A DNA stretch of 38,622 nucleotides from Chloroflexota bacterium (GCA_011192195.1 DUEH01000004.1:1-38622), one strand, 5' to 3'. Counted from the stretch's first letter, positions 23,081-38,281 are shown. Notes: generated by a model from the letters alone, not told the origin. Program-made: numbers and translations.

Positions 23081-23407
23081 ATGACAGAAGGCGTACAAGA
23101 TCTTCAAATTCTGCTAACGCCAGAGCAGAGTCAAGCGCTGACGACTATAGCTCAAGGTAAAGACCAAACCATTTTTGAATTAGTCGAACAAATCTTTCAA
23201 GAGGCTATTGACAGAAAGCAGCCAACCCAGAGTCAGGAACTCCAACAGCAGCTTGAAGCTCTGGAACGTGTCAAGCTGCATAAAGCCAAAATGCTAACCG
23301 AACGAGGCGGCAAACCACTCAGCATCAACTTACCCGCCGTACTTCAGGAAATACGCGAAGAACGAGATGAGTACAATGTCAACAGCCTCGTCACCCATCG
23401 TCATTGA
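23081..23407 (+). CDS. Putative antitoxin (RHH/CopG-like N-terminus)
   Basis: Small ORF overlapping a downstream PIN gene; LQILLTPEQ...IFELVEQIFQEAI; C-terminal LQEIREER. Confidence 0.65.
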   Translation: MTEGVQDLQILLTPEQSQALTTIAQGKDQTIFELVEQIFQEAIDRKQPTQSQELQQQLEALERVKLHKAKMLTERGGKPLSINLPAVLQEIREERDEYNVNSLVTHRH

Positions 23408-23825
23408 TTCAAATCTGGCTGTTTGGGCCGTTTTGCCTAACGTGGCCGTAGAGTCAACAGTTGATTTGTTGGCTAATTGGCACAGGCAACGGAGACGAAT
23501 TGTCGCCCCTGATCTGTGGTTAGCTGAAGCGACATCGGTCATTCGACGTTTGGTTTTTCACAAAGTAATTTCACCTGCTCAGGGTAAAGTTGCTATTGAC
23601 GATTTGTTTTCTTTGGGCGTAGAAACTATCTTGCTAGATCAACAACTTTACCAAAACGCCTTTGAGTGGGCAGAGAAATTGCAACAATCTAAAATTTATG
23701 ACAGCCTCTATGTGGCCTTGGCCGAGCATTTACAAGCCGAATTGTGGACAGCTGACAAACGATTAGTTAATGGCGCTAAACAAGCAGGAATAAGACGGGC
23801 GCATTGGGTAGGTGAGGGTAAGTGA
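23376..23825 (+). CDS. vapC: PIN-domain VapC toxin
   Basis: IVIDSN, APDLWLAE, IYDSLYVALAE, LWTADKRL; start 23367 or 23376. Confidence 0.88.
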   Translation: MSTASSPIVIDSNLAVWAVLPNVAVESTVDLLANWHRQRRRIVAPDLWLAEATSVIRRLVFHKVISPAQGKVAIDDLFSLGVETILLDQQLYQNAFEWAEKLQQSKIYDSLYVALAEHLQAELWTADKRLVNGAKQAGIRRAHWVGEGK

Positions 23826-24775
23826 AAATACCGACACAATCCTTCACCCAATTTTCTCAAAAAATCCAGGATAACATCGCCAAAGTCGTCATTGGCAAAG
23901 CAGATGTGACAGAGATGCTGCTGGTGGCGCTGCTGGTGGAAGGCCACGTCTTACTGGAAGACGTGCCTGGCATCGGTAAAACCACCCTGGCCCGGGCGAT
24001 GTCTCGCAGCCTTGACGCCTCTTTTGCCCGCATCCAATTCACGCCCGACCTCCTCCCCAGCGACGTGACCGGCCTGAACATCTATAATCAGAAAGATCAG
24101 AATTTTGAATTTCGGTCAGGCCCGGTGATGAACCAAATTGTGCTGGCCGACGAGATCAACCGCGCCACCCCGCGCACCCAATCCAGCCTGCTGGAAGCAA
24201 TGCAAGAGGGACAGGTAACGGTTGACGGCATCACCCACCCCCTGCCGCGCCCCTTTATGGTCATCGCCACCCAAAACCCCATCGAACTGGAAGGCACCTT
24301 TCCCCTGCCGGAAGCGCAGATTGACCGTTTTTTGATGCGGCTTCAATTGGGCTACCCCAACAAGTCGGAAGAGGAAAAAATCCTGCTTAACTACCAGCGT
24401 AATGACCCGCTGAGCGCCTTGCAAAGCGTCGTCGCTGCTGCCAAGGTGCTGACCTTGCAGCAGCAGGTCAAGGAAATCCACATCAACCCTGACGTGCGCA
24501 ACTACATTTTGGAAGTAGTCCGCGCCACCAGAGACCATCCGGCGGTGAGTCTGGGCGTGTCGCCTCGCGGAACGCTGGCATTGTTCAAAGCATCGCAAGC
24601 TCTGGCCGCCTTACGCGGGAGGGAGTACGTTACCCCCGGCGACGTGCAATATCTCTGCCCGCCTATCCTCACCCATCGCCTCAACGTCAGCCCCCAAATT
24701 CGCCTGCGTGGACGCACGCCGGAACAGGTGGTGGCAGAAATTACGAAATCAGTGCCGGTGCCGGTGGTGGAATAA
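23822..24775 (+). CDS. moxR: MoxR-family AAA+ ATPase
   Basis: HVLLEDVPGIGKTTLA, RIQFTPDLLPSDVTG, LADEINRATPRTQSSLLEAM, ATQNPIELEGTFPLPEAQIDRF. Confidence 0.95.
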   Translation: MKIPTQSFTQFSQKIQDNIAKVVIGKADVTEMLLVALLVEGHVLLEDVPGIGKTTLARAMSRSLDASFARIQFTPDLLPSDVTGLNIYNQKDQNFEFRSGPVMNQIVLADEINRATPRTQSSLLEAMQEGQVTVDGITHPLPRPFMVIATQNPIELEGTFPLPEAQIDRFLMRLQLGYPNKSEEEKILLNYQRNDPLSALQSVVAAAKVLTLQQQVKEIHINPDVRNYILEVVRATRDHPAVSLGVSPRGTLALFKASQALAALRGREYVTPGDVQYLCPPILTHRLNVSPQIRLRGRTPEQVVAEITKSVPVPVVE

Positions 24776-24820
24776 AGCAATTCAAAATGAAAAATGTAAA
24801 ATTTTGTATTAAGCGCTTAA

Positions 24821-24960
24821 GTAACTACTCAGGCTCAGGTACGACGCACTTAATAAATTGTTTTTTGGTGCAAATAACTACCCAATATCGTCAAAATTTG
24901 CACTTGCAGGGCGCTTCGTGAAGTGCGTTGCACCTATTTTCTCTATAGCTGAGTAGTTAC
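24821..24960. mobile_element. 140-bp MITE with perfect 12-bp TIRs and 8-bp target-site duplication
   Basis: TIRs GTAACTACTCAG / CTGAGTAGTTAC; GCGCTTAA at both 24813-24820 and 24961-24968. Confidence 0.85.
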
Positions 24961-25018
24961 GCGCTTAACGTTGAAATTCTTGAGGGTAAAAATTCTTTAC
25001 AGATGAGACAAGGTTTTA

Positions 25019-25090
25019 ACTCATGGACAGAAAACAATACTGACAATGATTTTTTGTTGTTTTTGTCAGTGTTTTCTTCCATCCGTGAGT
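25019..25090. repeat. Imperfect palindromic repeat
   Basis: actcatggacagaaaacaatactgacaa...ttgtcagtgttttcttccatccgtgagt. Confidence 0.55.
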
Positions 25091-25136
25091 CATCTTTATC
25101 GCTTGTCGGTTTGAAGCGAAGCTTCGTTAGACGGTT

Positions 25137-26471
25137 ATGAGCAATAGCCCGCAAGATTCCGCAGGTAACACTTCTTTCCCCCCTCACCCAAAACTCTTCG
25201 CCGAACTGCGCGGAGAGCGATACATTAATCTGGAAAAAGACACCCAATACAGCGATGCCTGGGTTACGCTGGCGCTTGTTGTGACCATTCTGGGGATTAT
25301 CTTCAGTAACCTTTTTTTGACCGCCGCCGCTCTGACCTTGCTGGTCATCGCCGCTATCAGCCGAAGCTGGAACGCTTTGAGTCTCTTTGGGCTGTACTAT
25401 CGCCGCCAATTTAGCGAAACCCGCGCTTTTATGGGGGAAACCATTGCCCTGACTCTGGAAGTGCGCAACCAGAAGTTTCTCCCCCTCACCTGGCTGCGCG
25501 TCAGCGATGTCTTTCCGGCGACGCTGCCGCTGCAAGAAAGCAAGGTGGACTTCAATCAGTTCAGCAATCTGGGCGAGTTTCGCAGCTTCTGGATATTGGG
25601 CGCGTTTCAGCGTATAACCCGCCATTTCACCATCGAATGTACTCACCGGGGCTACCACAGCTACGGCCCGGCCACCTTGCGCACCGGCGACGGCTTTGGC
25701 CTCTTTGGCAATCGGGCCATCCTGCCCGGTGAGCAGCGGATTATCGTTTATCCCCGCATCTACTCCGCTGCCGAACTGCGTATTCCGGCCAAAAATCCCT
25801 TTGGCGAGCGCAAAAGCGAGCGCCGCCTTTTTGAAGACCCGCTGCGCGCGCAGGGCATCCGCGAATGGCAGCCCGGCGACAGCCTCAAGCGCGTCCACTG
25901 GAAGGCCACTGCCCGTCACCGTCAACTATTGAGCCGCCTCTACGAGCCAAGCGAAGAGCCGCAGACCCTTATTTTTCTCAATGTAGCTACAATGCGTCGC
26001 CATTGGCAGGGCGTTTACCCGGAACTACTGGAACGGACCATCAGCGTGGCGGGCAGTCTGGCCGCGTTGTCGCTGGAGCAACGCACGCCTACCGGCTTGA
26101 TCGCCAACGGCGCTTTCCCCGGCAGCGACCAGCCATTGCGCCTGCTGCCGGGCCGCGGGGCAGACCAGTTGACGCGCATCCTGGAAATGTTGGCCGCCGT
26201 CAACAACTTCGCCAGCCGCCCCATCGAGGAGCATCTCTTGCGAGAAGCGCCTCGCTTGCCCTGGGGCGCAACCATCGTGGTAGTGACCGCCATCGCTCAT
26301 GATGAACTACTGCTGGCATTGGCAGACCTGCGCAAAGCCGGACGCGCGCTTGTTCTCTTCACTCTGGCCGAAGCGCCGCCCAAATCGCTGAATGAGCAAA
26401 TCGGTATTCCTGTTTATCATCTGCCGCATCTGGTGGATGATATAGTTGCGCCGAATGAGATGAAAATCTGA
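25137..26471 (+). CDS. DUF58 domain protein (MoxR partner)
   Basis: N-terminal TM segment, RGYHSYGP, IIVYPRI, IREWQPGDSLKRVHWKATAR, LERTISVAGSLA. Confidence 0.88.
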   Translation: MSNSPQDSAGNTSFPPHPKLFAELRGERYINLEKDTQYSDAWVTLALVVTILGIIFSNLFLTAAALTLLVIAAISRSWNALSLFGLYYRRQFSETRAFMGETIALTLEVRNQKFLPLTWLRVSDVFPATLPLQESKVDFNQFSNLGEFRSFWILGAFQRITRHFTIECTHRGYHSYGPATLRTGDGFGLFGNRAILPGEQRIIVYPRIYSAAELRIPAKNPFGERKSERRLFEDPLRAQGIREWQPGDSLKRVHWKATARHRQLLSRLYEPSEEPQTLIFLNVATMRRHWQGVYPELLERTISVAGSLAALSLEQRTPTGLIANGAFPGSDQPLRLLPGRGADQLTRILEMLAAVNNFASRPIEEHLLREAPRLPWGATIVVVTAIAHDELLLALADLRKAGRALVLFTLAEAPPKSLNEQIGIPVYHLPHLVDDIVAPNEMKI

Positions 26472-27898
26472 TGTTGTTGAACATCCAAAACCAACGCAGC
26501 GAAGTAATCTATTTCTGTCTGGCTGTAATGGAAATGGTCTGGGTGACGCCCTTTGTGATGCTGTTCCACCGCCCCGCGTGGCATTGGTCGCTCTGGGCGG
26601 TGTTTGGCGCGTTGAGTCTGGCTTTACTGCTGTGGATGCTCTTTTTAGACCGCCTCAACGCCCACAATCTGGATTCTCCGGCCTATGAATTGGCCGTGGT
26701 GAGCGCTATTGCCCTGTCAAGTTTGCTGCTGATCAGCTTGTGGCCGTACCAACTCAGCGTCGGCGAAGCGGGCGGCATCCCTCATCTTTTTCGCGCCCTA
26801 AGCGACATTCGGCAAGGCTTGCCGCTGGAAATCTACCTGATCCTGCTCAATCTTTTCCTCTGGCAGCGAGCCGCCAATGCCAGCAGCCGCCAGATGGGCT
26901 TTTTTGGCGTGGCCCTCAGTTTCAGGATGGGTGTTTTGTGGTTGATGGCGGGCGGCGCGCTGTTTAGCTGGATCAGCGGGCAAAACGTGTTGGGCATCTT
27001 GTGGCTTTACTTTGGCTTTGGCCTGACCGCCATCTCGCTGGCGCGGATAGAAGAGAAAGCCGCCGACGCTCACAGCAAGGGAAAATTGCTGCCGCCGCGC
27101 CGCCTTCTACAATTACTGCTCATCATCGCCGGGGTCGTGACCGCCATCGTTATTTTGTCTACCCTGTACACCCCGCAAAACTTGCAACGCCTCTTGGCTA
27201 AACTGGAACCCTTATGGGGGATTGTGCTGGCGCTGGCCTACCTGCTTTTTCAGGCTATTTTTTGGCTGCTAGGCCCTTTCTTCAACTGGCTGGAAAGCCT
27301 GCTGGCCGGCCTTTTCAGCGCCTCTGACTTTCGCTTTCCCTTGCAGGAATTTGAGCAAACTCTGACTGAAAACGCGCCCGAACAGGCCCAAAGCCTCTCT
27401 CAAGGCCTGTCTGACTGGATTTTGCTTTCGCTGCGCTGTCTGGTAATTGTTGCAGCCTTGTCCCTGGTATTAGGGCTGATTATGATTTTTTTGGACAAAT
27501 TCCGTTCGTCCAGAATTCAGAACCAGAACGAAGAAACCGGTCAGGAAAGCTTGACTTTGGGAGGCGGTACCGCGCGTCGTGGGTTGGAACAGTTGAAGGG
27601 CCTGGGGAGATTACTGCAACAATACGGCTTGAGCCGCCAACTTTTGGCCGCCATCAGCGTCGAAAATATGTACGCCAATCTGTGTCGCTTGGCCCAACGG
27701 CGAGGCTACCCGCGCCCGCCCGCCCAGACCCCGGACGACTATCTGGTTTTGTTGGCAAAAGCCTTCCCCGGTCAGGAGAAAGCGCTGGCGCGCCTTACCG
27801 CCGCCTACCAGCGCGTTCACTACGGCGACCTTCCCGTTCAGTCGGATGAACTTCGCCGCTTGCGAAGCGATTATGAGCAGGTAAGGCAGGCTAAATAA
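26471..27898 (+). CDS. Polytopic membrane protein with C-terminal DUF4129
   Basis: Many hydrophobic segments; C-terminal YANLCRLAQRRGYPRPPAQTPDDY...LTAAYQRVHYG; TGATG coupling. Confidence 0.75.
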   Translation: MLLNIQNQRSEVIYFCLAVMEMVWVTPFVMLFHRPAWHWSLWAVFGALSLALLLWMLFLDRLNAHNLDSPAYELAVVSAIALSSLLLISLWPYQLSVGEAGGIPHLFRALSDIRQGLPLEIYLILLNLFLWQRAANASSRQMGFFGVALSFRMGVLWLMAGGALFSWISGQNVLGILWLYFGFGLTAISLARIEEKAADAHSKGKLLPPRRLLQLLLIIAGVVTAIVILSTLYTPQNLQRLLAKLEPLWGIVLALAYLLFQAIFWLLGPFFNWLESLLAGLFSASDFRFPLQEFEQTLTENAPEQAQSLSQGLSDWILLSLRCLVIVAALSLVLGLIMIFLDKFRSSRIQNQNEETGQESLTLGGGTARRGLEQLKGLGRLLQQYGLSRQLLAAISVENMYANLCRLAQRRGYPRPPAQTPDDYLVLLAKAFPGQEKALARLTAAYQRVHYGDLPVQSDELRRLRSDYEQVRQAK

Positions 27899-28152: not shown

Positions 28153-28181
28153 CACACCCATAAAGAAGTGTGGAGAAACTT

Positions 28182-29453
28182 ATGAGTAAATCAGTTCGAT
28201 TATCAGGACTTTACAAATATTCACTGGAAAAACGCGCCAATGTTGTAGCCGAGTGGGCGAGTTTGAAGGCCGAAGAAAAAGCGGCCTTGATCAATGGCCT
28301 GCCCCTTTCAATGGGCGATGGTATGATTGAGAACGTGATTGGCTTGTACAATTTACCGCTGGGTATTGCCACCAACTTCTTGATCAACGGGGAAGAGGTC
28401 ATTGTTCCGATGGCCGTAGAAGAGCCAAGCATTGTGGCCGGACTCAGCTACGCTGCCAAACTGACCCGCTCTAGCGGTGGTTTCAGAACCAGCAGCAGCC
28501 AGCCGGTAATGATTGGTCAACTTCAGGTTTTAGGGTTGAGCGACCTGGATGAAGCCGTGACCAAGCTAAAAGCTATTGAAGCCGAACTGCTGGAAAAAGC
28601 TGATCACGATCCAATCATTCGCAAGTTTGGCGGCGGCGCAAAAGGCTTTGAGTTTCGTCCGCTGCCCGATACAGCGGTTGGGCCGATGCTGATTGTCCAC
28701 ATTTTATACGATTGCCGCGACGCAATGGGCGCTAATACCGTCAACACCGCCGCCGAAATCATTTCTCCCATCATCGAAAAAGTGACCGGTGGACGCGTGA
28801 ACTTGCGCATCATCTCCAATCTGGCAGACCGGCGCACCGCCACCGCCGAATGTACCATCAAAGCCGGGCAACTGGCGCGCGGCGATATGGACGAGGCAGC
28901 GGTTGTGCAGGGCATTGTTGAAGCCTGGGCCTTTGCCAAAGCCGATCCCTACCGCGCCGCCACCCACAATAAGGGAATTATGAACGGTATTGACGCCGTT
29001 GCTATTGCCACCGGCAACGACTGGCGCGCCATTGAAGCGGGAGCGCACGCCTTTGCGGCTCGCAACGGACGCTACACAAGCCTGACTGAATGGCGGCGCA
29101 ATGAAGACGGTGATTTAGCGGGGCGACTGCACTTGCCGCTGGCCGTTGGCACAGTTGGCGGAGCAACAAAAGTTCATCCCGCCGCTCGCGCGTCCATTAA
29201 AATTTTGGGGAACCCCAGCGCGCGCCGTTTGGCCGAAATTATGGCCGCTGTTGGCCTGGGTCAAAATCTGGCCGCCATCCGCGCTTTGGCAACTGAAGGC
29301 ATTCAGCGCGGACACATGCGCCTGCACGCCCGCCAGGTTGCCCTGGCCGCCGGCGCCACTCCTGAACAAGCGCAGGAAATTGCTAATCAATTGGTAGCAG
29401 AAGGCAACATCAAAGAAGCCAGAGCAAAGGAAATTCTTAAAAACAGTGAATAA
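28182..29453 (+). CDS. mvaA: HMG-CoA reductase, class II
   Basis: IENVIG, PMAVEEPSIVA, DAMGANTVN, ATHNKGIMNG, TGNDWRAIEAG, GIQRGHMRLHAR; GGAG RBS before ATG 28182. Confidence 0.95.
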   Translation: MSKSVRLSGLYKYSLEKRANVVAEWASLKAEEKAALINGLPLSMGDGMIENVIGLYNLPLGIATNFLINGEEVIVPMAVEEPSIVAGLSYAAKLTRSSGGFRTSSSQPVMIGQLQVLGLSDLDEAVTKLKAIEAELLEKADHDPIIRKFGGGAKGFEFRPLPDTAVGPMLIVHILYDCRDAMGANTVNTAAEIISPIIEKVTGGRVNLRIISNLADRRTATAECTIKAGQLARGDMDEAAVVQGIVEAWAFAKADPYRAATHNKGIMNGIDAVAIATGNDWRAIEAGAHAFAARNGRYTSLTEWRRNEDGDLAGRLHLPLAVGTVGGATKVHPAARASIKILGNPSARRLAEIMAAVGLGQNLAAIRALATEGIQRGHMRLHARQVALAAGATPEQAQEIANQLVAEGNIKEARAKEILKNSE

Positions 29454-29521
29454 TGAACAATGAATAATGAATAATTTTTCACTATTCATTATTCATTGTT
29501 CACTGTCCATTTTTCACTGTC
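29444..29521. repeat. Inverted 7-bp tandem repeats (TGAATAA / TTCATTA)
   Basis: agtgaataatgaacaatgaataatgaataat...ttcactattcattattcattgttcactg. Confidence 0.8.
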
Positions 29522-29535
29522 TTTTCGGAGACATT

Positions 29536-30591
29536 ATGCCCATTATGCAAGCTAACACCCCCACCGGCATTGTTGGTTACGGAGCTTACGTCCCCCGCTA
29601 TCGCGTTCCGGCTACGGAAATTTCCCGCGTGTGGACTGACGGCGTGGGGGGCGTACCCATCAAAGAAAAAGCAGTGGCCGGGCTGGACGAAGACACAATC
29701 ACTATTTCCATCGAAGCGGCTCGTAACGCCTTGCATCGGGCGCAGATCAATCCCGCGTTGTTGGGGGCTGTGTGGGTAGGCAGCGAAAGTCATCCCTACG
29801 CGGTGAAGCCCAGCGGCACCATCGTTGCCGAAGCTATCGGCGCGGTTCCGCACACGCAAGCCGGCGATTGGGAATTTGCCTGCAAGGCAGGCACGGAAGC
29901 CATGCAAGCGGGCATCGGCTTTGTGGGTAGCGGTATGCAGCCTTATGTGCTGGCTATTGGCGCAGATACCGCCCAGAGTCGCCCCGGTGACGCGCTGGAA
30001 TACACCGCCGCCGCCGGAGGCGCAGCTTATATCATCGGCAGAGCAGAAGAAAGTCTGGCTGAGTTTGAAGCCACCTATTCTTTTGTCACCGATACGCCCG
30101 ACTTTTGGCGCAGACCGCAGGCCCACTATCCCAGCCACGGTCAACGCTTCACCGGCGAACCGGCTTACTTTGAACACAGCGTTTCGGCGGTGAAAACGCT
30201 GCTGATGGAATTGGGCCGCAGCGCCAAAGATTACAACTACGTTACCTTTCACCAGCCCAACGCCAAATTTCCGCAGCGCGCCGCAAAAATGCTGGGCTTT
30301 GAAAAAGCGCAATGGGAAGCCGGACTCCTGTCTCCGGTGGTGGGCAACACCTACTCCGGCGCAACAATGTTGGGGCTGACGGCCATTTTGGACATCGCCA
30401 AACCGGGAGAGCGCATTCTGTGCGCCAGTTTTGGCTCCGGCGCCGGGTCAGACGCCTTTTCGCTGCTGGTCACAGAACGCATCGCCGGCCGGGCGAATAT
30501 GGCCCCCACCACGCAGGCGTACATCGCCCGCCGCAAAGAAGTAGATTACGCCCTGTACACCCGCTATCGCGGCAAGCTGAGTATGAAATGA
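29536..30591 (+). CDS. HMG-CoA synthase, archaeal type
   Basis: [66 protein letters not shown]. Confidence 0.93.
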
Positions 30592-30712
30592 AAAGTTCAA
30601 AATGAAAAGTTCAAAATGGCTGACAATTCGCATCGTTTACGGTAAACAAGAAACCAAAAACCTGAAACCCGAAACCTGAAACCCGAAACCTGAAACCCGA
30701 AACCCGAAACCC
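30584..30712. repeat. 7-bp tandem repeats (AAATGAA/AGTTCAA and CCYGAAA)
   Basis: gaaatgaaaagttcaaaatgaaaagttcaaaatg...cctgaaacccgaaacctgaaacccgaaacctgaaacccgaaacccgaaacc. Confidence 0.85.
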
Positions 30713-30715
30713 TTT

Positions 30716-31873
30716 ATGAGAGATATATCAATTATTGGAATAGGACAAACTCCGGTTGGAGAACATTGGGGCAGAAGTTTGCGCCATCTGGCTTACGACG
30801 CCTTGCACCTGGCAATGAAAGACGCCGGTACAGAGCGCGTAGACGCCCTGTACGTGGGCAATATGCTTTCGGGCGAAATCAGCGGGCAGGCGCATATTGG
30901 GCCGCTGATAGCCGATTTTGCCGGACTGCGCGGCATAGAGGCGGTGAAGATTGAAGCCGCCTGCGCCAGCGGAGCCGCCGCCTTTAGACAAGGCGTCATC
31001 GGCGTAGCCAGCGGTTATCAGGACGTGGTAGCGGTAGTAGGCGTAGAAAAGATGACCGACGACGTGGGCAGTCGCCTTACTGCGGGATTGGCCTCTGCCG
31101 CCGACGCCGACTACGAAACCGTTCACGGCGTCACCTTTGTGGCGCTCAATGCCCTGATTATGCAGCGCTATATGCACGAATACGGCTTGAGCAAGGGTGA
31201 TTTTGCTAATTTTAGCGTCAATGCCCACGCTAACGGGGCTAATAATCCCAACGCAATGTTTAGACGCGCCATCAGCAAAGAAACCTTTATGCGCGCGGGC
31301 GTGGTGGCCAACCCTGTCAGTCTCTTTGACGCCAGCCCAATGGCCGACGGCGCTGCCGCCGCCATCATCTGCCCTACCCGTCTGGCCCGCGAATATACCG
31401 ATAAAGCCGTCCACGTCCTGGCCTCCGCCATTGCCACCGACAGCCTGGCCGTTCATGACCGCAAAAACCCGCTCTGGTTGCAAGCGGCGGAAGATTCAGC
31501 GCATACGGCGTACCGGCAGGCAAAAATTACCCCGGCTGAACTGGACTTCTTTGAATTGCACGACGCCTTCACCATTATGGCCGCCCTCAGTTTAGAGGCT
31601 GCCGGTTTTGCCAAAGCGGGTCAGGGGACGCGATTGGCCGTTAATGGCGACATTGCTTTGGACGGTAAGCTGCCCATCGCCACGATGGGGGGGCTCAAAG
31701 CAAGAGGCCATCCGGTTGGCGCAACCGGAATGTATCAAATTGTTGAAGCCGCCTTACAGCTTCGCGGCGAGGCAGGGAAGAATCAACTTCCCCACGCCCG
31801 CCTGGGAATGACCCAAAACATCGGCGGCAGCGGCGCAACTATTGGAACGCATATTTTTAAAAGCAGTGAATAA
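30716..31873 (+). CDS. Acetoacetyl-CoA thiolase, archaeal (SCP2-thiolase-like) type
   Basis: IEAACASG, GVEKMTD, SPMADGAAA, ELHDAF, GGLKARGHPVGATG, QNIGG. Confidence 0.92.
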   Translation: MRDISIIGIGQTPVGEHWGRSLRHLAYDALHLAMKDAGTERVDALYVGNMLSGEISGQAHIGPLIADFAGLRGIEAVKIEAACASGAAAFRQGVIGVASGYQDVVAVVGVEKMTDDVGSRLTAGLASAADADYETVHGVTFVALNALIMQRYMHEYGLSKGDFANFSVNAHANGANNPNAMFRRAISKETFMRAGVVANPVSLFDASPMADGAAAAIICPTRLAREYTDKAVHVLASAIATDSLAVHDRKNPLWLQAAEDSAHTAYRQAKITPAELDFFELHDAFTIMAALSLEAAGFAKAGQGTRLAVNGDIALDGKLPIATMGGLKARGHPVGATGMYQIVEAALQLRGEAGKNQLPHARLGMTQNIGGSGATIGTHIFKSSE

Positions 31874-31948
31874 TGAACAATGAATAGTGAAAAATTCTCA
31901 CTATCCACAATTCACAATTCGTTATTCACTGCCCACTATTCACTGTTT
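31862..31948. repeat. Inverted 7-bp tandem repeats (TGAATAR / TTCACTR)
   Basis: agtgaataatgaacaatgaatagtgaaaaattctcactatccacaattcacaattc...ctattcactg. Confidence 0.75.
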
Positions 31949-31965
31949 TTCAGGAGGAAAATTAA

Positions 31966-32373
31966 ATGACTGTAGAAATAGCCCGCCACTGGCGATTGAA
32001 CTCACAACGCTATAGTTTAATAGGCGAAGAGTGCCCTGCCTGCCACTATAAAATCTTCCCCCCCCGCGATGTCTGCCCTCACTGCGCCGAAGAAGCCGGG
32101 CCGGAATTTCACTTTAGCGGCAACGGAACCGTTTTTTCGCACACCACCGTTCACACCCCCCCAGAGGGCTTTGAAGCGCAGTCGCCCTATACCGTTGCCC
32201 TTGTTAAACTGGACGAAGGGCCAATGATTACCGCTCAACTCACCGATGTGGACAATGGCGCCGTTGAAATTGGCTTGCCCGTTGAAATGGTCACGCGCAA
32301 ACTGGCCGAACAGGGCGACGAAGGTTTGATCCTCTACGGCTACAAGTTTCGCCCCCAAATGGCAATGGCCTGA
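31966..32373 (+). CDS. DUF35 Zn-ribbon/OB-fold protein (thiolase/HMGS scaffold)
   Basis: CPAC...PPRDVCPHC, GTVFSHTTVH, PYTVALVKLDEGP, YGYKFRP. Confidence 0.92.
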   Translation: MTVEIARHWRLNSQRYSLIGEECPACHYKIFPPRDVCPHCAEEAGPEFHFSGNGTVFSHTTVHTPPEGFEAQSPYTVALVKLDEGPMITAQLTDVDNGAVEIGLPVEMVTRKLAEQGDEGLILYGYKFRPQMAMA

Positions 32374-32434: not shown

Positions 32435-32493
32435 GTAACCGTTGCTCCCCTCGTTTCAGCGCGCCGCGTTGAAACGAGGGGAGCAACGGTTAT
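32435..32493. repeat. GTAAC-ended palindrome; probable terminator of the mevalonate operon
   Basis: GTAACCGTTGCTCCCCTCGTTTCA...TGAAACGAGGGGAGCAACGGTTAT flanked by T-runs. Confidence 0.7.
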
Positions 32494-32508
32494 TTTTTAT
32501 TCTGCCTC

Positions 32509-32562
32509 TTGACAACTATGACGCACTGTGTTATAATTTCGATTGTATAACGCAGTGCGTCA
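32509..32562 (+). promoter_or_regulatory. Consensus sigma70 promoter with two palindromic operators (putative PhaR boxes)
   Basis: TTGACA (32509-32514)-17 nt-TATAAT (32532-32537); TGACGCACTGTGTTA at 32519-32533 and TAACGCAGTGCGTCA at 32548-32562. Confidence 0.8.
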
Positions 32563-32620
32563 CAAACTCGCCTGCTAAACAACTTAAAGCGCTATCCTAA
32601 ATTATAAAAGGAGATAAATA

Positions 32621-33004
32621 ATGGTAAAAGAAAAAGTAGAAGAAGTTGTGGAAAAAGCTGAAGAAGGTCGTAATTTCTTGCTAGACGGACTTCACAAAAT
32701 TTTATTGGCCGGTGTTGGCGCGGTATCCCTGGCTCAGGAAGAAGTTGAAGACTTTGTCGGCAAGCTCGTAGAAAAGGGCGAGATTGCCGAAAAAGATGGT
32801 CGAAAGCTGCTTGACGATATTGACAAGAAGCGCAAAGAGCAGACTGGCAAAGTTAAAAAGCAAACCGAAAAGGCCGAAAAAGAACTGGATAAACGCCTTG
32901 ACGGCCTGCTGGCTCGATTGAACGTTCCTACCAAGTCAGACATTGATGGGCTGAACGACAAAATTGCTGCCTTGACCAAAAAAATTGATGAATTGAAAAA
33001 ATAA
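32621..33004 (+). CDS. Phasin / granule-associated protein (PhaF/PhaI-like)
   Basis: HKILLAGVGAVSLAQEE, KLVEKGE, RLNVPTKSDIDGLNDKIAALTKKI; AAGGAG RBS. Confidence 0.85.
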   Translation: MVKEKVEEVVEKAEEGRNFLLDGLHKILLAGVGAVSLAQEEVEDFVGKLVEKGEIAEKDGRKLLDDIDKKRKEQTGKVKKQTEKAEKELDKRLDGLLARLNVPTKSDIDGLNDKIAALTKKIDELKK

Positions 33005-33111
33005 GCCTGGTTTTTGAAAACAGTGGATAGTGGGTTGTGGATAGCAAGGACGGGCCTGCAATTTACTATCCACTGCCCACTATTTTGGGTGGTGGTAGAA
33101 AAGTAAGTGAT

Positions 33112-33139
33112 GGAGTGTCAAACTATAGTTTGACACTCC
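33112..33139. repeat. REP-like perfect 28-bp palindrome
   Basis: GGAGTGTCAAACTATAGTTTGACACTCC. Confidence 0.7.
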
Positions 33140-33290
33140 GCAATCATCACCTGCAACTTAACCACTACCCTGTTTTCAAGGGAGAGCGTAGCGCATCTCC
33201 TTTTTTTGTATTTACTGCGCGTTTGCTCGCAAAAATCATCGTGGTACAATACATCTTAAAATTAAATCGAGCGTGTTGAGGAGCAAAGCT

Positions 33291-33899
33291 ATGTTGATCA
33301 TCAAACGGTATCCCAACCGAAAGTTGTACGATACAGAGAAAAAGCAGTACGTTACTCTGGACAAAATTGCAATTTTAATTCAGGAAGGGAAAGATATTCA
33401 GGTGATAGACCATTCTACGGGCGAAGACCTTACTGCCGTAACCCTATCGCAAATAATTTTTGAGCAGGAGAAAAAACAGAGCGGTTTTGTACCCAAAAAT
33501 GTTTTGGCCGGACTGGTTCAGGCGGGCGGTGATACGCTGAGCGCCTTCAAAAACGCCCTGACTTCTCCTCTCGACGCGCTGCCAGACGTGGATTTAGAGA
33601 TAGAACGGCGTATTAAAAAGCTTATTCAAGAGGGCAAGTTGGCGGAAGAGCAAGGCCGAAACCTGCTTGAACAACTCTTGGAAACAAGTCGCCAAACGGC
33701 CAAAAAGACTCAGGCGGGCGGCGAAACTTACCTGAAGAAGTTGCTGTCCAAGCGGGGTATTCCTTCTCAAGATGAAATTTCCAGACTGAGCGAGCAGATT
33801 GACAATCTGGCGGCCAAACTGGAGTCTCTGGCTCAGTCAAAAACTGAGGCCGCCGTAGAAGAAGGCCACGCCGGTGCGGATGATCAAGAAGAAGAATAA
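33291..33899 (+). CDS. phaR: PhaR-type DNA-binding regulator fused to a phasin-like C-terminal domain
   Basis: IIKRYPNRKLYDT...YVTLDKI...VID..TGEDLT..TLSQIIFEQE (PHB accumulation regulator N-domain); C-terminal GIPSQDEISRLSEQIDNL resembles the neighbouring phasin; GAGGAG RBS before ATG 33291. Confidence 0.8.
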   Translation: MLIIKRYPNRKLYDTEKKQYVTLDKIAILIQEGKDIQVIDHSTGEDLTAVTLSQIIFEQEKKQSGFVPKNVLAGLVQAGGDTLSAFKNALTSPLDALPDVDLEIERRIKKLIQEGKLAEEQGRNLLEQLLETSRQTAKKTQAGGETYLKKLLSKRGIPSQDEISRLSEQIDNLAAKLESLAQSKTEAAVEEGHAGADDQEEE

Positions 33900-33914
33900 T
33901 AATCCGAACCGATT

Positions 33915-34481
33915 ATGATCATTGTTGCGGGTTTTGCCAAGCGATCCTTCATCTTTCCGGCTGATTTACCCACGGCTTTTGCTTACTATACTGATTTAAG
34001 CCGTATTTTGACCTACCTGCCGCACATCTACATTGCCCGCACCTACGATGATAATCAACTTCGGATGTGTTATAATACCATTGAACTGGGAACCTACAAG
34101 ATCAATATTTTTTGCGATTTACGCGCTGAGATGGACGCGGAAGAACGCGCTTTACGAGTTTTTCCGTTAAGGGGAGTAACGCCGGTGAAGGCAAAAGCTA
34201 CCTTGCGTTCAGCAACTGCGTCAGGTCGTTTTTCCAGCGAATCTCTCTTTTTTGACGAAGGCGAGAAAACACGCATCGAATATCGTCTGGAATTGCAAGC
34301 CGAACTCCCCAAGCCAATGGGCCTGCGTTTCGTGCCAAAATCGGTGATTAACGGCATTGCCGGCAGCATCACCCATCGTCGAATCAAAGAGATTGCGGAT
34401 GGATTTATTCGACGCTCTATTGACGCTTTTCCTGAGTGGCTGGGAGAATTGGGCGATAGTAAAATGAAGATAATGGGATGA
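33915..34481 (+). CDS. SRPBCC/START-like (CoxG/DUF1997-like) protein
   Basis: FPADLPTAFAYYTD...LPHI; TRIEYRLELQAELPKPMGLRFVP followed by a long C-terminal helix. Confidence 0.55.
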   Translation: MIIVAGFAKRSFIFPADLPTAFAYYTDLSRILTYLPHIYIARTYDDNQLRMCYNTIELGTYKINIFCDLRAEMDAEERALRVFPLRGVTPVKAKATLRSATASGRFSSESLFFDEGEKTRIEYRLELQAELPKPMGLRFVPKSVINGIAGSITHRRIKEIADGFIRRSIDAFPEWLGELGDSKMKIMG

Positions 34482-34494
34482 TCTTGGTTCCTGT

Positions 34495-34547
34495 AAAAAA
34501 AGCCCCCAGGTATTCATAGTCGGCTATGAATACCTGGGGGCTTTTTT
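34495..34547. terminator. Bidirectional intrinsic terminator between convergent operons
   Basis: AAAAAAAGCCCCCAGGTATTCATAG-TCGG-CTATGAATACCTGGGGGCTTTTTT. Confidence 0.8.
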
Positions 34548-34602
34548 GTAACCATTCCCCCCTCTTGTTCCCACGCAGAGCGTGGAAACAAGAGGGGGGA
34601 AG
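34548..34602. repeat. REP-like palindrome (TTCCCACGCAGAGCGTGG-type)
   Basis: ttccccctcttgttcccacgcagagcgtggaaacaagagggggaa. Confidence 0.65.
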
Positions 34603-34609
34603 TGATGTG

Positions 34610-36451
34610 CTATATTACCAGCTCATCAAGCCCCAACTCGGTCAGTTTTTGCGCCGATGGGCGACCACTTTCCCAATCCCAATCTCGATGAGCGTAATAT
34701 TCTTTGAGCATTAGCTGCCAATCGGGCACAAAGCCATCGGTGGGGCCGCTGGCGAGAGGGGTATTCAAGAGGATGGGCATTACTTCATCCTGCCGAGGCT
34801 TCAATCCCAGTTTTAGATTGAGCAGGCGTTTCAGGTTAAAGATGCGCTCTCCGCCAAGAACCAACTCATCCAGCGATATTTCTTTCCCCAAAATCGCTTG
34901 AAAAGTCTCCGGCAATACTTGCAGGTTTACATTGACAAAGACGCAACAACCGCAAGCATCCACCATCGAGCGATAATCCTGATGCTTTGCCACCAGCGGC
35001 GCTTTGCCCGCTTCCTGGCGGTGGTCATCAGAGACAATCCCCAATTGATCAAAGGTATGCCCTGTTTCCACAAAATAGAAATCGCTTTTGTTGTGGCAAG
35101 CCCCTCTGGGCGAGGTGAGATAAACCAGGGCCATCCCGCTGAAAGCGCGGGGGTCATGCATGCCGGGGTCCATTCCGTTGACCTGCACCGCCAGTCCGGG
35201 CGCGTTAAAATGTTCTTCCATTGCGCGCACGCCGTCGGCCAAAATGTCGCCAAAGCCGTCGCGAACGGCGATTTTTTTCAGCAATTCAATAGTTTGGGCA
35301 GGATTGCCCCATTCCACCGTTTCGCCCTTGCTGTCTGCGGAAGACAGGTAGCCTTGCTCGCTGAGCCAGGCGGCAAAGCCAATGACCGCTCCGGCGCTGA
35401 TGACATCCATTCCCGCCGAATCGCATATCCAGTCGAAATAGGAGACGGCTTTCAGGTCTTCAATCAGCAGGTTTGACCCCAGTGAGGCGACGGCTTCGTA
35501 TTCCGGGCCATCCGTTGTACCCAGCGCGTAGGGATCATCTTCGCCTTCGATGGTCACTTCGCTGCCGCATTGCACGGTGCAGCCCCAGCAGCCCGTGCTG
35601 CCGGTACGAATGGACATTGACATTGCCGCGCCGCTCAGGTTCAACGCGCCTTCGTAATCGCCCTCTGTCCAGTATTTGGCGGGCAAGGAGCCGACCATCT
35701 GGAAGTATTCCAGCCCGCTGGCAGTTCCCAGGTCTTTGAGGAGATCGGCGGCAAAGTCTGCTTTGATGTGCGCCATTGCTTTGCGAAAGGCCAGATTGAC
35801 CGCTTCTTTGTCTGATACGGGAATTAGTCCCTTACCACGAATGGCGATGGCTTTGAGCTTTTTAGACCCCATTACCGCGCCCATGCCGGCGCGTCCGGCG
35901 GCGCGCGCGTCGGCGTTCATAATGGAGGCAAAACGAACCAGGTTTTCGCCCGCCGGGCCAATGCAAGCCACGCGAGTGCGCGAGTCTCCGGATTCGGCGA
36001 TGATTTCGTTTTGGGTTTGATAGGTGTCCAATCCCCACAGGTGTTCGGCGGGACGCAGTTTTGGCGGCAGGCCTTCACGAATGAGCAGGTAGACCGGCGT
36101 GGGCGATTGCCCGGTGATGATGATGCCGTCGTAGCCCGCTCGTTTTAGTTCGTGTCCGGTGTAGCCGCCCGCGCTGGATTCGCCAAAGAGGCCGGTAAGC
36201 GGGCTTTTGGAGATGAAGGCGTGCCTGGAAGCGGAAGGGGTGCGCGTGCCGGTCAGTGGGCCGGTCATCATAATCAGGGGGTTGTCTGGCCCCAGCGGAT
36301 CGGTGGCGGCGTCAACCATATCAAAGAGATAGCGCGCGCCCAGTCCGCTGTTACCGATGAATTGTTCGGCCCAGTCTTGATTCAACGCTTCATCGCGCAG
36401 TTTGCCCGTACTCAGGTTCACGTGGAGAATTTTTTCCAGATAGCCGTTCAT
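34610..36451 (-). CDS. aor: Aldehyde:ferredoxin oxidoreductase family (W/Mo-bis-pterin, 4Fe-4S)
   Basis: SKSPLTG, CIGPAGENLV, GRAGMGAVMGSKKLKAI, CWGCTVQCG, GPEYE, CDSAGMD, HDPR, EYYAHRDWD; GGAG RBS before ATG 36451. Confidence 0.92.
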   Translation of the reverse strand: MNGYLEKILHVNLSTGKLRDEALNQDWAEQFIGNSGLGARYLFDMVDAATDPLGPDNPLIMMTGPLTGTRTPSASRHAFISKSPLTGLFGESSAGGYTGHELKRAGYDGIIITGQSPTPVYLLIREGLPPKLRPAEHLWGLDTYQTQNEIIAESGDSRTRVACIGPAGENLVRFASIMNADARAAGRAGMGAVMGSKKLKAIAIRGKGLIPVSDKEAVNLAFRKAMAHIKADFAADLLKDLGTASGLEYFQMVGSLPAKYWTEGDYEGALNLSGAAMSMSIRTGSTGCWGCTVQCGSEVTIEGEDDPYALGTTDGPEYEAVASLGSNLLIEDLKAVSYFDWICDSAGMDVISAGAVIGFAAWLSEQGYLSSADSKGETVEWGNPAQTIELLKKIAVRDGFGDILADGVRAMEEHFNAPGLAVQVNGMDPGMHDPRAFSGMALVYLTSPRGACHNKSDFYFVETGHTFDQLGIVSDDHRQEAGKAPLVAKHQDYRSMVDACGCCVFVNVNLQVLPETFQAILGKEISLDELVLGGERIFNLKRLLNLKLGLKPRQDEVMPILLNTPLASGPTDGFVPDWQLMLKEYYAHRDWDWESGRPSAQKLTELGLDELVI

Positions 36452-36509
36452 TGATGCTCCTTGCAAGCTTTTAGCGGTCAGTTTTCAGCTTTTAGCTGAC
36501 CGCTGAAAG

Positions 36510-37676
36510 CTAAAAATCAATATCCTTGCCCTGGTAGGCGTAGCGGAAGAGTTGGGTGGTTTCGTTGGTGTCGGGGATACGGCTGCCCATGACAATGACG
36601 GAATCGGCTTCGGCAAAGGCGACAAGTTGGGCCAGCGCGGCTTCAAATTCCTCCGCTGAGGCGTCAATGGTCTCTTTAATGCTCAAGGGTTGTCCTACGG
36701 CAACAGAAAGTTCTTGAATAGCCTTTATCAGACTATCTGCGCCTTCTTTGGGTGTGGCGGCGGGCAGGCCCAGAAAGCGGCTTAGTTCGTGGAAACGGGT
36801 TTCGCCGGGGTTGTTATCAGTGAATTGGATGGTGTAGGGTAGAAAAAGGGCCACGGCTCTGCCGTGCGGCACGTGGAAGACGGCTCCCAAACTATGCCCC
36901 AACGAGTGCGCCAGAGCGGGCATGGCGTTGCTAAAACTCAAGCCGGCCAGGGTGGCGGCGTTGTGCATCTTTTCGCGGGCTTCCATATCGTCGCCATTGG
37001 CAACGGCGCGGGGCAGATAGGTGAAGACCAGTTGCATAGCTTTTAAGGCCAGCCCGTCGCTGAAGTCATTGCGCAAACTGCAGGTGTAGGCTTCAATAGC
37101 GTGGGTCAGCGCGTCCAGACCGGTATCGGCGGTGAGGCGAGGGGGCATTTTTTGCGCCAGAAGCGGGTCAATAATGGCGATGTCCGGCAGCAGTTCCGGG
37201 GAACTAAGACCCATTTTACGCCCGTCGGGTTCTGAAATAACGGTAGCCCAGGTTGCTTCTGAGCCGGTTCCGCTGGTAGTGGGAATGGCGATGAGTCTGG
37301 CTTTGTCGCGCAGGTTCAGCGCTTCAAAGGGGTTTATGTCTTCCGGGGTCATATTCGGGTGAACATACATCACCCACATTGCCTTGGCTGCATCCATTGC
37401 CGACCCGCCGCCCAGCCCGACAATCCAGTCCGGTTCAAAGGCGCTCATTTCTTTGGCGCCTTTCATAATTGTGGCGGCGGAAGGTTCCGGTTCCACATCG
37501 CTGAAGGTCTGGCAGCTTATACCGGCTTGCGCAAAATACTCGCTGATCAGGTCTACAAAGCCCAATTTGACCATCATTGGGTCTGCGACAATAAAAGCGC
37601 GGTTCCCGCCAAGGGTTTCCAGATGCTCCAGCGCGTCTTCGCCAAAAATTATTTCAGGAGATCGAAAGTACCACAT
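36510..37676 (-). CDS. Iron-containing alcohol dehydrogenase
   Basis: GLGGGSAMDAAK, IPTTSGTGSEAT, DALTHAIEAY, AHSLGHSLG, HVPHG. Confidence 0.95.
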   Translation of the reverse strand: MWYFRSPEIIFGEDALEHLETLGGNRAFIVADPMMVKLGFVDLISEYFAQAGISCQTFSDVEPEPSAATIMKGAKEMSAFEPDWIVGLGGGSAMDAAKAMWVMYVHPNMTPEDINPFEALNLRDKARLIAIPTTSGTGSEATWATVISEPDGRKMGLSSPELLPDIAIIDPLLAQKMPPRLTADTGLDALTHAIEAYTCSLRNDFSDGLALKAMQLVFTYLPRAVANGDDMEAREKMHNAATLAGLSFSNAMPALAHSLGHSLGAVFHVPHGRAVALFLPYTIQFTDNNPGETRFHELSRFLGLPAATPKEGADSLIKAIQELSVAVGQPLSIKETIDASAEEFEAALAQLVAFAEADSVIVMGSRIPDTNETTQLFRYAYQGKDIDF

Positions 37677-37691
37677 AACTTACTCCTTTTT

Positions 37692-37762
37692 TAATGAACA
37701 ATGAAAAATGAACAGTGAAGAGTGAAAAATTATTCATTATTCACTGTTCATTATTCACTGAA
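37692..37762. repeat. Inverted 7-bp tandem repeats (TGAAYAR / TTCAYTR)
   Basis: taatgaacaatgaaaaatgaacagtgaagagtgaaaaattattcattattcactgttcattattcactgaa. Confidence 0.8.
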
Positions 37763-37764
37763 TT

Positions 37765-38184
37765 TTAGAAGGGAAATTCGGTAGGCACAAAGGTGGCGCA
37801 GTGAACCAGTTCATTGGATGCTTTAACGTTGCGCATAATTTTAGCCATGTTGCCGGTCAGTTTAAGTTTACGGGTGAGCATTGCTTTGATGGGGTCAAGA
37901 CCGTCGTCAATGACTTCTTTGAAAGTTTTCACGCTGCCGCGAAATTCAAATTCAGGCTTGAAGTCATCTTTGTTTTCGGCGCGAAGCGCTTTTCGACATT
38001 CGCCGTGCCACAGGTCAAGATAAACGTATCGGTCTTCATCCAGAGAGCTTCCTTTGGCTTCTACCACAAAGTAGATGTCGCCTTCCCAGGCTTTAGCGGC
38101 TTCGGCGTAGGCTTTGCTGTTGTTCAACTCTTCGCATAAGCGTTTAGCCCATTCATCGGTACCAAATAAAATTTTGTCAGACAT
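37765..38184 (-). CDS. SCP2 sterol/lipid-binding domain protein
   Basis: FGTDEW..L...LNNS..Y.EAAK.WEGD, YLDLWHGEC, LDPIKAMLTRKLKLTGNMAKIMR; GGAGG RBS before ATG 38184. Confidence 0.85.
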   Translation of the reverse strand: MSDKILFGTDEWAKRLCEELNNSKAYAEAAKAWEGDIYFVVEAKGSSLDEDRYVYLDLWHGECRKALRAENKDDFKPEFEFRGSVKTFKEVIDDGLDPIKAMLTRKLKLTGNMAKIMRNVKASNELVHCATFVPTEFPF

Positions 38185-38231
38185 AGAATTCCTCCATACA
38201 AGGTGAGTAAAATTGTGGGTAGTCAAGGTGA

Positions 38232-38281
38232 TGACGCATCGCGTTAAACGCAATTGTAACACACTGCGTCACAGGTGTCAA
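38232..38281 (-). promoter_or_regulatory. Sigma70 promoter with two palindromic operators (putative PhaR boxes)
   Basis: On the - strand TTGACA (38281-38276)-17 nt-TACAAT (38258-38253); TGACGCAGTGTGTTA (38271-38257) and TAACGCGATGCGTCA (38246-38232). Confidence 0.8.

Follow-up and report, generated by a model that had tools for sequence, protein, structure and literature searches.

Phasins and the regulator PhaR serve as markers of polyhydroxyalkanoate (PHA) storage. A locus of a Chloroflexota bacterium (GCA_011192195.1, DUEH01000004.1) raises the question of what such a pair does next to genes for an SCP2 lipid-carrier-fold protein, an iron-containing alcohol dehydrogenase (Fe-ADH) and a tungsten-type aldehyde ferredoxin oxidoreductase (AOR). 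The locus lies in the window analyzed here, a stretch of 38,622 bases (bases 1-38,622 of a 61,077-base contig). The genome under study, hereafter G000, is a 301-contig assembly (3.23 Mb) with a completeness of 73.8%. Positions 32,436-38,281 of the window hold two convergent units, phasin/PhaR-like/START-like on the + strand and SCP2/Fe-ADH/AOR on the - strand, and both outer promoters carry the same pair of operators. We lean towards the answer that a PhaR-family repressor, titrated by droplets, controls both a coat and a mobilization branch.

Two convergent units and their operators

The main features of the locus are the following, with scores of the operators taken from the weight matrix described below.

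32509-32537, + strand: phasin promoter, TTGACA-17-TATAAT, 12 of 12 consensus positions
32519-32533: operator O1, in the spacer of the phasin promoter and overlapping its -10 box, 22.8 bits
32548-32562: operator O2, about +5 to +19 of the phasin unit, 24.6 bits
32621-33004, + strand: phasin of PhaF/PhaI type, 127 aa (PF05597 1.8e-16, 60.8 bits against a cut-off of 28.8)
33223-33250, + strand: possible separate promoter of phaR, read from the sequence, with a weak -35 box and a TG-extended TACAAT
33291-33899, + strand (alternative start 33273): PhaR-like repressor, 202 aa, N-terminal PHB_acc_N and phasin-like C-terminal helices
33915-34481, + strand: SRPBCC/START-like protein of the DUF1997 family, 188 aa, 16 bp 3' of phaR
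34496-34547: bidirectional intrinsic terminator, a perfect hairpin with 24-nt arms, bordered by one A run and one T run
34610-36466, - strand: tungsten-type AOR of the AOR sensu stricto clade, about 613-618 aa, likely start ATG 36451
36510-37676, - strand: Fe-ADH, 388 aa (PF00465 1.8e-47, PF25137 6.9e-48)
37765-38184, - strand: SCP2 lipid-carrier-fold protein, 139 aa (PF02036 7.8e-13, 49.1 bits against 21.3)
38232-38246: operator O2', about +1 to +15 of the SCP2 unit, 17.7 bits
38253-38281, - strand: SCP2-ADH-AOR promoter, TTGACA-17-TACAAT, 11 of 12 consensus positions
38257-38271: operator O1', in the spacer of the SCP2 promoter, 22.8 bits

The initial annotation had described two convergent units sharing a bidirectional terminator, and both the Pfam gene content and the hairpin analysis agree with it: the hairpin at 34496-34547 scored as a terminator on both strands and closes both units. 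The outer ends of the two promoters, 32509 and 38281, coincide with the limits of the region first annotated. The operator is a 15-bp imperfect palindrome, T[GA]ACGCAnTG[CT]GT[TC]A, present in two copies at each outer promoter. Each of the half-sites noted earlier is itself palindromic, and each promoter therefore carries two palindromes. One of these extends from the -35/-10 spacer into the -10 box; its partner spans roughly +1 to +20. Sites placed in this way, over the -10 box and the predicted transcript start, are what one expects of a repressor. Four zero-mismatch matches occur in the window against 0.10 expected, and none of 100 shuffles reached four, so the operator pair common to the two outer promoters stands as first described.

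The scan of the whole genome suggested in the initial annotation was run with a weight matrix trained on 19 operator sites, all of them from relatives. In the 3.23-Mb assembly it returned seven sites of at least 18 bits, against none in the reversed-genome control, and ten against one at 16 bits or more; at 12 bits (27 against 26) the signal was lost. Six of the seven strong sites make up three pairs at three promoters, those of phasin, SCP2-FeADH-AOR and a GNAT gene, while strong sites outside the pairs lie inside genes and look like chance matches. The third promoter, of consensus type and located on contig C280, drives a gene for a 183-aa GNAT protein (C280:27808-28419). The best named relative of this protein is the GNAT domain of the acetyltransferase Pat (56 bits, far under the cut-off), and the sister genus showed no counterpart of this site. 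From center to center, the paired palindromes of the three promoters are separated by 29, 25 and 24 bp. Neither the region upstream of phaR in G000 nor the G000 orthologues of the patatin, p737-like and small-111 genes showed a matrix match of at least 10 bits.

We compared the locus with its counterparts in a set of 61 genomes, made up of G000 and 60 relatives. Matches to the regulator query occur in 11 of these, including a weak match in G027 (5.9e-4, within a 632-aa frame) and one in G005 that covers the phasin-like part alone. The exact operator motif was likewise found in 11 of the 61 genomes, ten of which have a regulator match; the eleventh, G009, belongs to the same genus, is 89% complete and has no such match. 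None of the remaining 50 genomes, G027 included, contained the exact motif, and a reversed-pattern control matched two genomes. The operator pair recurs with the same geometry in all seven relatives' loci in which the phasin promoter is assembled. In four relatives, a single copy also follows the -10 box of phaR, which is an autoregulation layout. PhaR is convergent with AOR in G002, G004, G007 and G008, and is not in G001, G011, G028 and the second copy of G008. The conservation of operator and gene linkage in relatives, which had been proposed as a check on the locus, was thus found within family f1.

The PhaR of Sinorhizobium meliloti offers a reference for this motif. Its consensus is YGCRNYGCR, with binding confirmed by electrophoretic mobility shift assay (EMSA); two consensus copies lie at each phaP promoter, mutation abolishes the shift, and PhaR represses the phasins and the degradative branch (PMC12542648). 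By comparison of the sequences alone, the operator core CGCA-n-TGCG fits this consensus. Because the operator also co-occurs with the PhaR-like gene, its description as a PhaR-type element common to both units holds, and we infer that the PhaR-like protein very likely binds these palindromes.

The proteins of the + unit have the domains expected from their names, although several fall short of the stricter models. The start of the PhaR-like protein at 33291 was chosen by alignment with eight relatives. Its N-terminus matches PHB_acc_N (PF07879; 6.4e-28, 97.1 bits against a cut-off of 25) and its C-terminal part matches Phasin (PF05597; 4.4e-7). Against the equivalog TIGR01848 it scores 87.8 bits, missing the cut-off of 109.45, with residues 3-88 alone aligned. 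No central PHB_acc domain (PF05233) was found in it by Pfam at E <= 0.01, and a PDB search returned no relative at E <= 0.05. The phasin itself scores 77.3 bits against TIGR01837, under the cut-off of 94.7. Databases label these Chloroflexota proteins PhaR or 'PHA synthesis repressor'. Several are also labeled 'pesticidal protein Cry15Aa' in public records, which looks like a propagated mis-annotation. The spacer between phasin and phaR measures 286 bp (33005-33290), and inside it lies a perfect palindrome with 14-nt arms (33112-33139).

The third gene of the + unit had been called START-like. Its 188-aa product scores 23.2 bits against Pfam DUF1997, under the cut-off of 27, and its AlphaFold model (pLDDT 95.1, from a 49-sequence alignment) has the SRPBCC/START helix-grip fold. 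The best Foldseek matches of the model are Maqu_3174, TTHA0849, CoxG, aromatase/cyclases and the CERT START domain, with 3p9v, 2d4r, CoxG 8uds and CERT START among the top structures. The label is upheld since the closest structural matches are SRPBCC/START proteins. Among the papers listed, DUF1997 is named only within lists.

Storage of neutral lipid or of PHA

Which storage compound would such a cassette serve? No PHA synthase (PF07167, TIGR01836) was found in G000. Families f1, f2 and f3, which hold every strong PhaR-like match and include genomes of 96% and 98% completeness, also returned no PhaC. The PhaC-type matches among the 61 genomes fall in f4 (17/31 for TIGR01836 and 13/31 for PF07167), with one weak match in f9. 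Meanwhile, contig C82 of G000 encodes a wax ester synthase/diacylglycerol acyltransferase (WS/DGAT), with matches to PF03007 (8.7e-43), PF06974 (6.1e-41) and TIGR02946 (413 bits against a cut-off of 310) and the HHxxxDG motif at residue 137. WS/DGAT was found in f1 alone among the 61 genomes (in 8 of 10 genomes, and in G000). The genome search suggested at the outset hence gave no phaC and one bona fide WS/DGAT, and the initial remark that no PHA synthase was in view extends to G000, under two PhaC models, and to the relatives with a strong PhaR-like match.

The same pattern was seen in a class sample of 251 Anaerolineae genomes, evenly sampled and each at least 85% complete, in which counts ignore shared ancestry. 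PHB_acc_N, taken as PhaR, occurs in 77 of these genomes and WS/DGAT in 50, and 48 of the 50 WS/DGAT carriers are PhaR-positive. The two exceptions are G252 and G005, the latter with a match to the phasin part only, at the start of a contig. The WS/DGAT carriers span 13 families, and PhaR occurs in those same genomes in 12 of the 13. PhaC-like matches (E <= 1e-20) were found in 11 of the 251 genomes; seven of them are above the cut-off, and none of these seven genomes is PhaR-positive. The gene atfA (WS/DGAT) has been reported from Chloroflexi metagenome-assembled genomes (MAGs) and from Ca. Promineofilum breve as potential lipid storage (PMC9942424). For fatty acyl-CoA reductase (PF07993) there were weak, epimerase-like matches, of 41 bits in G000 and 54.5 bits at best in five WS/DGAT-positive genomes. 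Control genomes matched this model as well (14/14 at E <= 0.001 and 9/14 at 1e-8).

An alignment built from nine regulators, used as the query against public genomes, found 401 relatives; the best 80 loci were kept, and genes were counted within 10 kb. These loci come from Chloroflexota MAGs, apart from two records labeled Patescibacteria and Alphaproteobacteria. A phasin lies upstream in 65 of the 80 loci, a DUF1997-like gene directly downstream in 51, and the strict operator is present in 52. PhaC and WS/DGAT were each found in none of the 80, and AOR in one, at 32% identity. A divergent lipid-type cluster accompanies the regulator in 35 of the 80 loci and also in three close relatives (G002, G006 and G008). 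This cluster contains a 737-aa dehydrogenase, an NAD epimerase-like reductase, a PlsC-type acyltransferase with a Cys-rich N-terminus, two SCP2 genes and a patatin-like lipase, joined in some loci by Fe-ADH. Examples are loci L148 (1437-9099), L036 (1585-8700), L031 and L034. G002 has the divergent cluster together with phasin, PhaR and AOR in a single locus. Since the phasin-PhaR-START cassette adjoins a PlsC-acyltransferase/SCP2/patatin cluster in many Chloroflexota, the genomic context makes a neutral-lipid rather than a PHA system well supported.

The initial annotation had proposed a storage-lipid system with wax ester or isoprenoid ester droplets. Its lipid part is kept, as PhaR tracks WS/DGAT and not PhaC, and its isoprenoid part is weakened. 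An isoprenoid link through the mevalonate operon next to the phasin unit was rejected, and the operon counts here simply as a neighbor: a strong hairpin separates that operon from the phasin promoter, and mevalonate genes lie near PhaR in only 1 of the 80 wider loci. No mevalonate operon was seen upstream of phasin in the loci of close relatives. The operon in question is an upper mevalonate operon of four genes (28170-32373): HMG-CoA reductase, an HMGCS-like gene, a thiolase and a DUF35/ChsH2 OB-fold gene. The last three resemble the archaeal-type thiolase/HMGCS/DUF35 set. The hairpin, with 28-nt arms (32436-32492), ends this operon and insulates the phasin promoter. A second G+C-rich hairpin (34555-34601) lies directly 3' of the AOR stop codon. 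The two hairpins are alike in build and flank the phasin unit, and they could be copies of a REP-like element. Further upstream, the window holds a trio of MoxR-type AAA ATPase, DUF58 and DUF4129 genes (23822-27898), with a PIN-domain gene before it (23367-23825).

The SCP2-FeADH-AOR module and competing explanations

What, then, would the - unit do under such a regulator? Its AOR has AFOR_N (7.8e-79) and AFOR_C (2e-107) domains in Pfam, and its closest structures are 9mqx (4.8e-132) and 1aor (6.4e-120). The SCP2 gene starts at ATG 38184 with a GGAGG ribosome-binding site. Inverted repeats occupy both gaps of the operon (36466-36511 with 16-nt arms and 37699-37760 with 31-nt arms), which may set differing product levels or mark sites of RNA processing. 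Among the best 30 SCP2 loci, Fe-ADH is the next gene in all 30 and AOR follows in 22: nine were seen directly and 13 among 15 extended loci, while two lack it and six are at a contig edge. Thus, AOR follows in 22 of the 24 assessable loci, from many families. The operator is present in 4 of the 30, all of family f1. This distribution indicates that SCP2-FeADH-AOR is an old and common Anaerolineae module that family f1 alone has placed under PhaR.

Other operator copies in relatives extend the regulon. One precedes SCP2-FeADH in G006, G008 and G009 of the sister genus, and one precedes a pair of acyl-CoA dehydrogenases (ACAD1-ACAD2) in G005, G006, G007, G008 and G009. In G005, two operator-bearing promoters precede a 111-aa gene and a membrane 4Fe-4S dicluster protein (an Fe-S oxidoreductase). 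By analogy with work on syntrophs, this oxidoreductase may link beta-oxidation to the quinone pool. An orthologous acyl-CoA dehydrogenase pair, followed by a short-chain dehydrogenase, is found in G000 at C43:1-2658. Its promoter is unassembled because contig C43 begins inside the first gene.

We propose the following mechanism for a droplet-titrated repressor. The PhaR-like protein would bind the palindrome pairs over the -10 box and transcript start and shut at least three promoters of G000, namely those of phasin, SCP2-FeADH-AOR and GNAT; phaR and the START-like gene, which follow phasin in the + unit, have no separate operator. On the model of PhaR in producers of polyhydroxybutyrate (PHB), the surface of a hydrophobic inclusion would pull the repressor off the DNA. 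This inclusion would most likely be a neutral-lipid droplet, of wax ester or triacylglycerol made via WS/DGAT, and not PHA. Derepression would then supply the coat, composed of phasin and perhaps of the START-like lipid binder. For mobilization, SCP2 would deliver a hydrophobic alcohol or aldehyde, Fe-ADH would oxidize the alcohol, and AOR would convert the aldehyde into the acid with ferredoxin. In relatives, the acyl-CoA dehydrogenases and the membrane Fe-S oxidoreductase would carry on into beta-oxidation.

The chain length of the substrates and the direction of the AOR/ADH route are, like the droplet titration, matters that we infer from context. A constant SCP2 leader, together with the recurrent association with patatin and acyltransferase genes, argues for hydrophobic substrates, and a long-chain role of AOR and Fe-ADH is supported less than the neutral-lipid reading itself. 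As to direction, we somewhat favor oxidation of alcohol and aldehyde (mobilization) over fatty-alcohol synthesis. Aldehyde oxidation by AOR is thermodynamically strongly favored, which adds to the case for this direction. The preference follows from the co-regulated acyl-CoA dehydrogenases and from S. meliloti, where PhaR represses the degradative branch (PMC12542648). The full combination, in which the phasin and PhaR of Anaerolineae act as coat and sensor of wax-ester or triacylglycerol droplets and in f1 switch on a CoA-independent SCP2/Fe-ADH/AOR route from droplet fatty alcohols to fatty acids, is offered tentatively, as one possibility.

Several observations weigh against a droplet system with a dedicated alcohol route. 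The Fe-ADH is closest to the ADH domain of AdhE, of ethanol type (3zdr 4.1e-101, PRK13805 359 bits). SCP2 homologues occur in 156 of the 251 class genomes and PhaR in 77, and SCP2-FeADH-AOR is also found in many PhaR-negative genomes; the module therefore does not belong to the droplet system exclusively, and its basic job is independent of the PhaR regulon. PhaR regulons of PHB producers are broad, and that of S. meliloti reaches well beyond PHB genes (PMC12542648), so regulon membership alone does not fix the substrate. No operator of at least 10 bits was seen at WS/DGAT in nine loci, and 29 of the 77 PhaR carriers lack WS/DGAT. The absence of PhaC from G000 is weak on its own because the assembly is 73.8% complete, and 4 of the 77 PhaR carriers have PhaC-like matches below the cut-off. 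Finally, the co-occurrence counts carry no correction for shared ancestry. The earlier claim that granule sensing controls the AOR/ADH route is consequently supported in part, as a PhaR-type operator sits on SCP2-FeADH-AOR, and weakened in so far as the module also occurs without PhaR.

Part of this evidence fits another explanation, namely that SCP2-FeADH-AOR is a short-chain redox module for ethanol or similar alcohols, placed under PhaR as a general regulator of carbon overflow and with no link to storage lipid. The ADH is nearest to AdhE domains, and AOR belongs to the AOR sensu stricto clade, whose members are broad in substrate range. The module is kept in 22 of the 24 assessable loci with the operator absent outside f1, SCP2 is about twice as frequent as PhaR in the class (156 and 77 of 251), and the S. 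meliloti regulon is a precedent for PhaR targets well beyond PHB genes (PMC12542648). However, in all 30 loci the operon begins with an SCP2 lipid-carrier gene, for which an ethanol substrate does not readily account. The SCP2-FeADH pair also lies inside the patatin/PlsC cluster of other Chloroflexota, patatin follows AOR in 2 of the 15 extended loci, and relatives carry the same operator on acyl-CoA dehydrogenases. We regard a short-chain module as doubtful, though deserving of serious weight.

Far less probable is a PHA system after all, whose synthase would either be encoded in the quarter of G000 missing from the assembly or have diverged beyond the reach of the two PhaC models. Such an explanation draws on the incompleteness of G000, the PHA-family domains and the database name PhaR of the proteins, and the sub-cut-off PhaC-like matches in 4 of the 77 PhaR-positive genomes. 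Yet 73 of the 77 carriers have no PhaC-like match at E <= 1e-20, none of the seven true PhaC genomes has PhaR, relatives with a strong PhaR-like match lack PhaC even at 96-98% completeness, and PhaC is absent within 10 kb of all 80 PhaR loci. Least probable of all is binding of the palindrome by a different transcription factor with PhaR nearby by coincidence: an OmpR-type response regulator gene does adjoin the SCP2 promoter, but OmpR-type regulators typically bind direct repeats rather than palindromes, and the motif is confined to genomes with a PhaR-like gene or to its genus. Moreover, known PhaR systems likewise have their sites at the promoters of phasin and phaR, and the motif core agrees with the S. 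meliloti consensus cited above, which EMSA had validated.

If the phasin-PhaR module serves neutral-lipid droplets, storage predictions made from metagenomes of sludge, sediments and mats would need correcting. About one third of the sampled Anaerolineae, an abundant and mostly uncultured class, carry the module. A droplet-titrated PhaR would, if true, be a second, independent case of bacterial gene control by droplet titration, after MLDSR in Rhodococcus, and would provide a defined operator/repressor pair for studying how hydrophobic surfaces are sensed. If the AOR link is related to lipid, a tungsten enzyme would be added to lipid turnover in anaerobes.

Comparison with known systems

Pyrococcus and acetogens use AOR plus ADH for routes between acids and alcohols. 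The module described here is similar to these: its AOR is a stand-alone enzyme from that clade, encoded beside an Fe-ADH, and the two would provide a CoA-independent link between acid, aldehyde and alcohol. It is unlike them in that the operon is led by SCP2 and, in family f1, carries a PhaR operator. Another likeness is to PhaF/PhaI of Pseudomonas, as PF05597 matches both the phasin and the C-terminus of the regulator. In PhaF, too, a phasin segment is fused to a part that binds DNA, which there is a C-terminal histone-like tail. Here, the DNA-binding part is instead the N-terminal PHB_acc_N, and the hosts are not known as PHA makers. A limited literature search found no paper tying phasin or PhaR to wax esters, WS/DGAT, AOR or Chloroflexota, and no description of wax-ester turnover in anaerobes via SCP2/Fe-ADH/AOR.

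The droplet-sequestration logic proposed here has a counterpart in MLDSR of Rhodococcus jostii RHA1, a regulator of the major droplet protein that is sequestered by triacylglycerol droplets (PMC5504291). The likeness between our system and MLDSR/MLDS is one of mechanism alone. The accessible part of the MLDSR paper names no AOR, ADH or beta-oxidation targets, and PhaR and phasin have no occurrences in it (PMC5504291).

Compared with PhaR/AniA of PHB-producing proteobacteria such as S. meliloti, the present system works like a PhaR-phasin system yet fails three canonical features of PhaR: the equivalog cut-off, the PHB_acc domain and the co-occurrence with PhaC. The regulator, under the TIGR01848 cut-off, has a PF05597-like C-terminus in place of PHB_acc (PF05233). 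Its hosts appear to lack PhaC and mostly have WS/DGAT, and its candidate targets are SCP2-FeADH-AOR, acyl-CoA dehydrogenases and GNAT, not phaZ or phaC. The likenesses to PhaR/AniA (PMC12542648) lie in the N-terminal PHB_acc_N, in a palindromic operator with a YGCR-N-YGCR core present in two copies at phasin promoters, in the autoregulation of phaR in relatives, in the repressor-type positions of the sites, and in a predicted regulon composed of a coat and a degradative branch.

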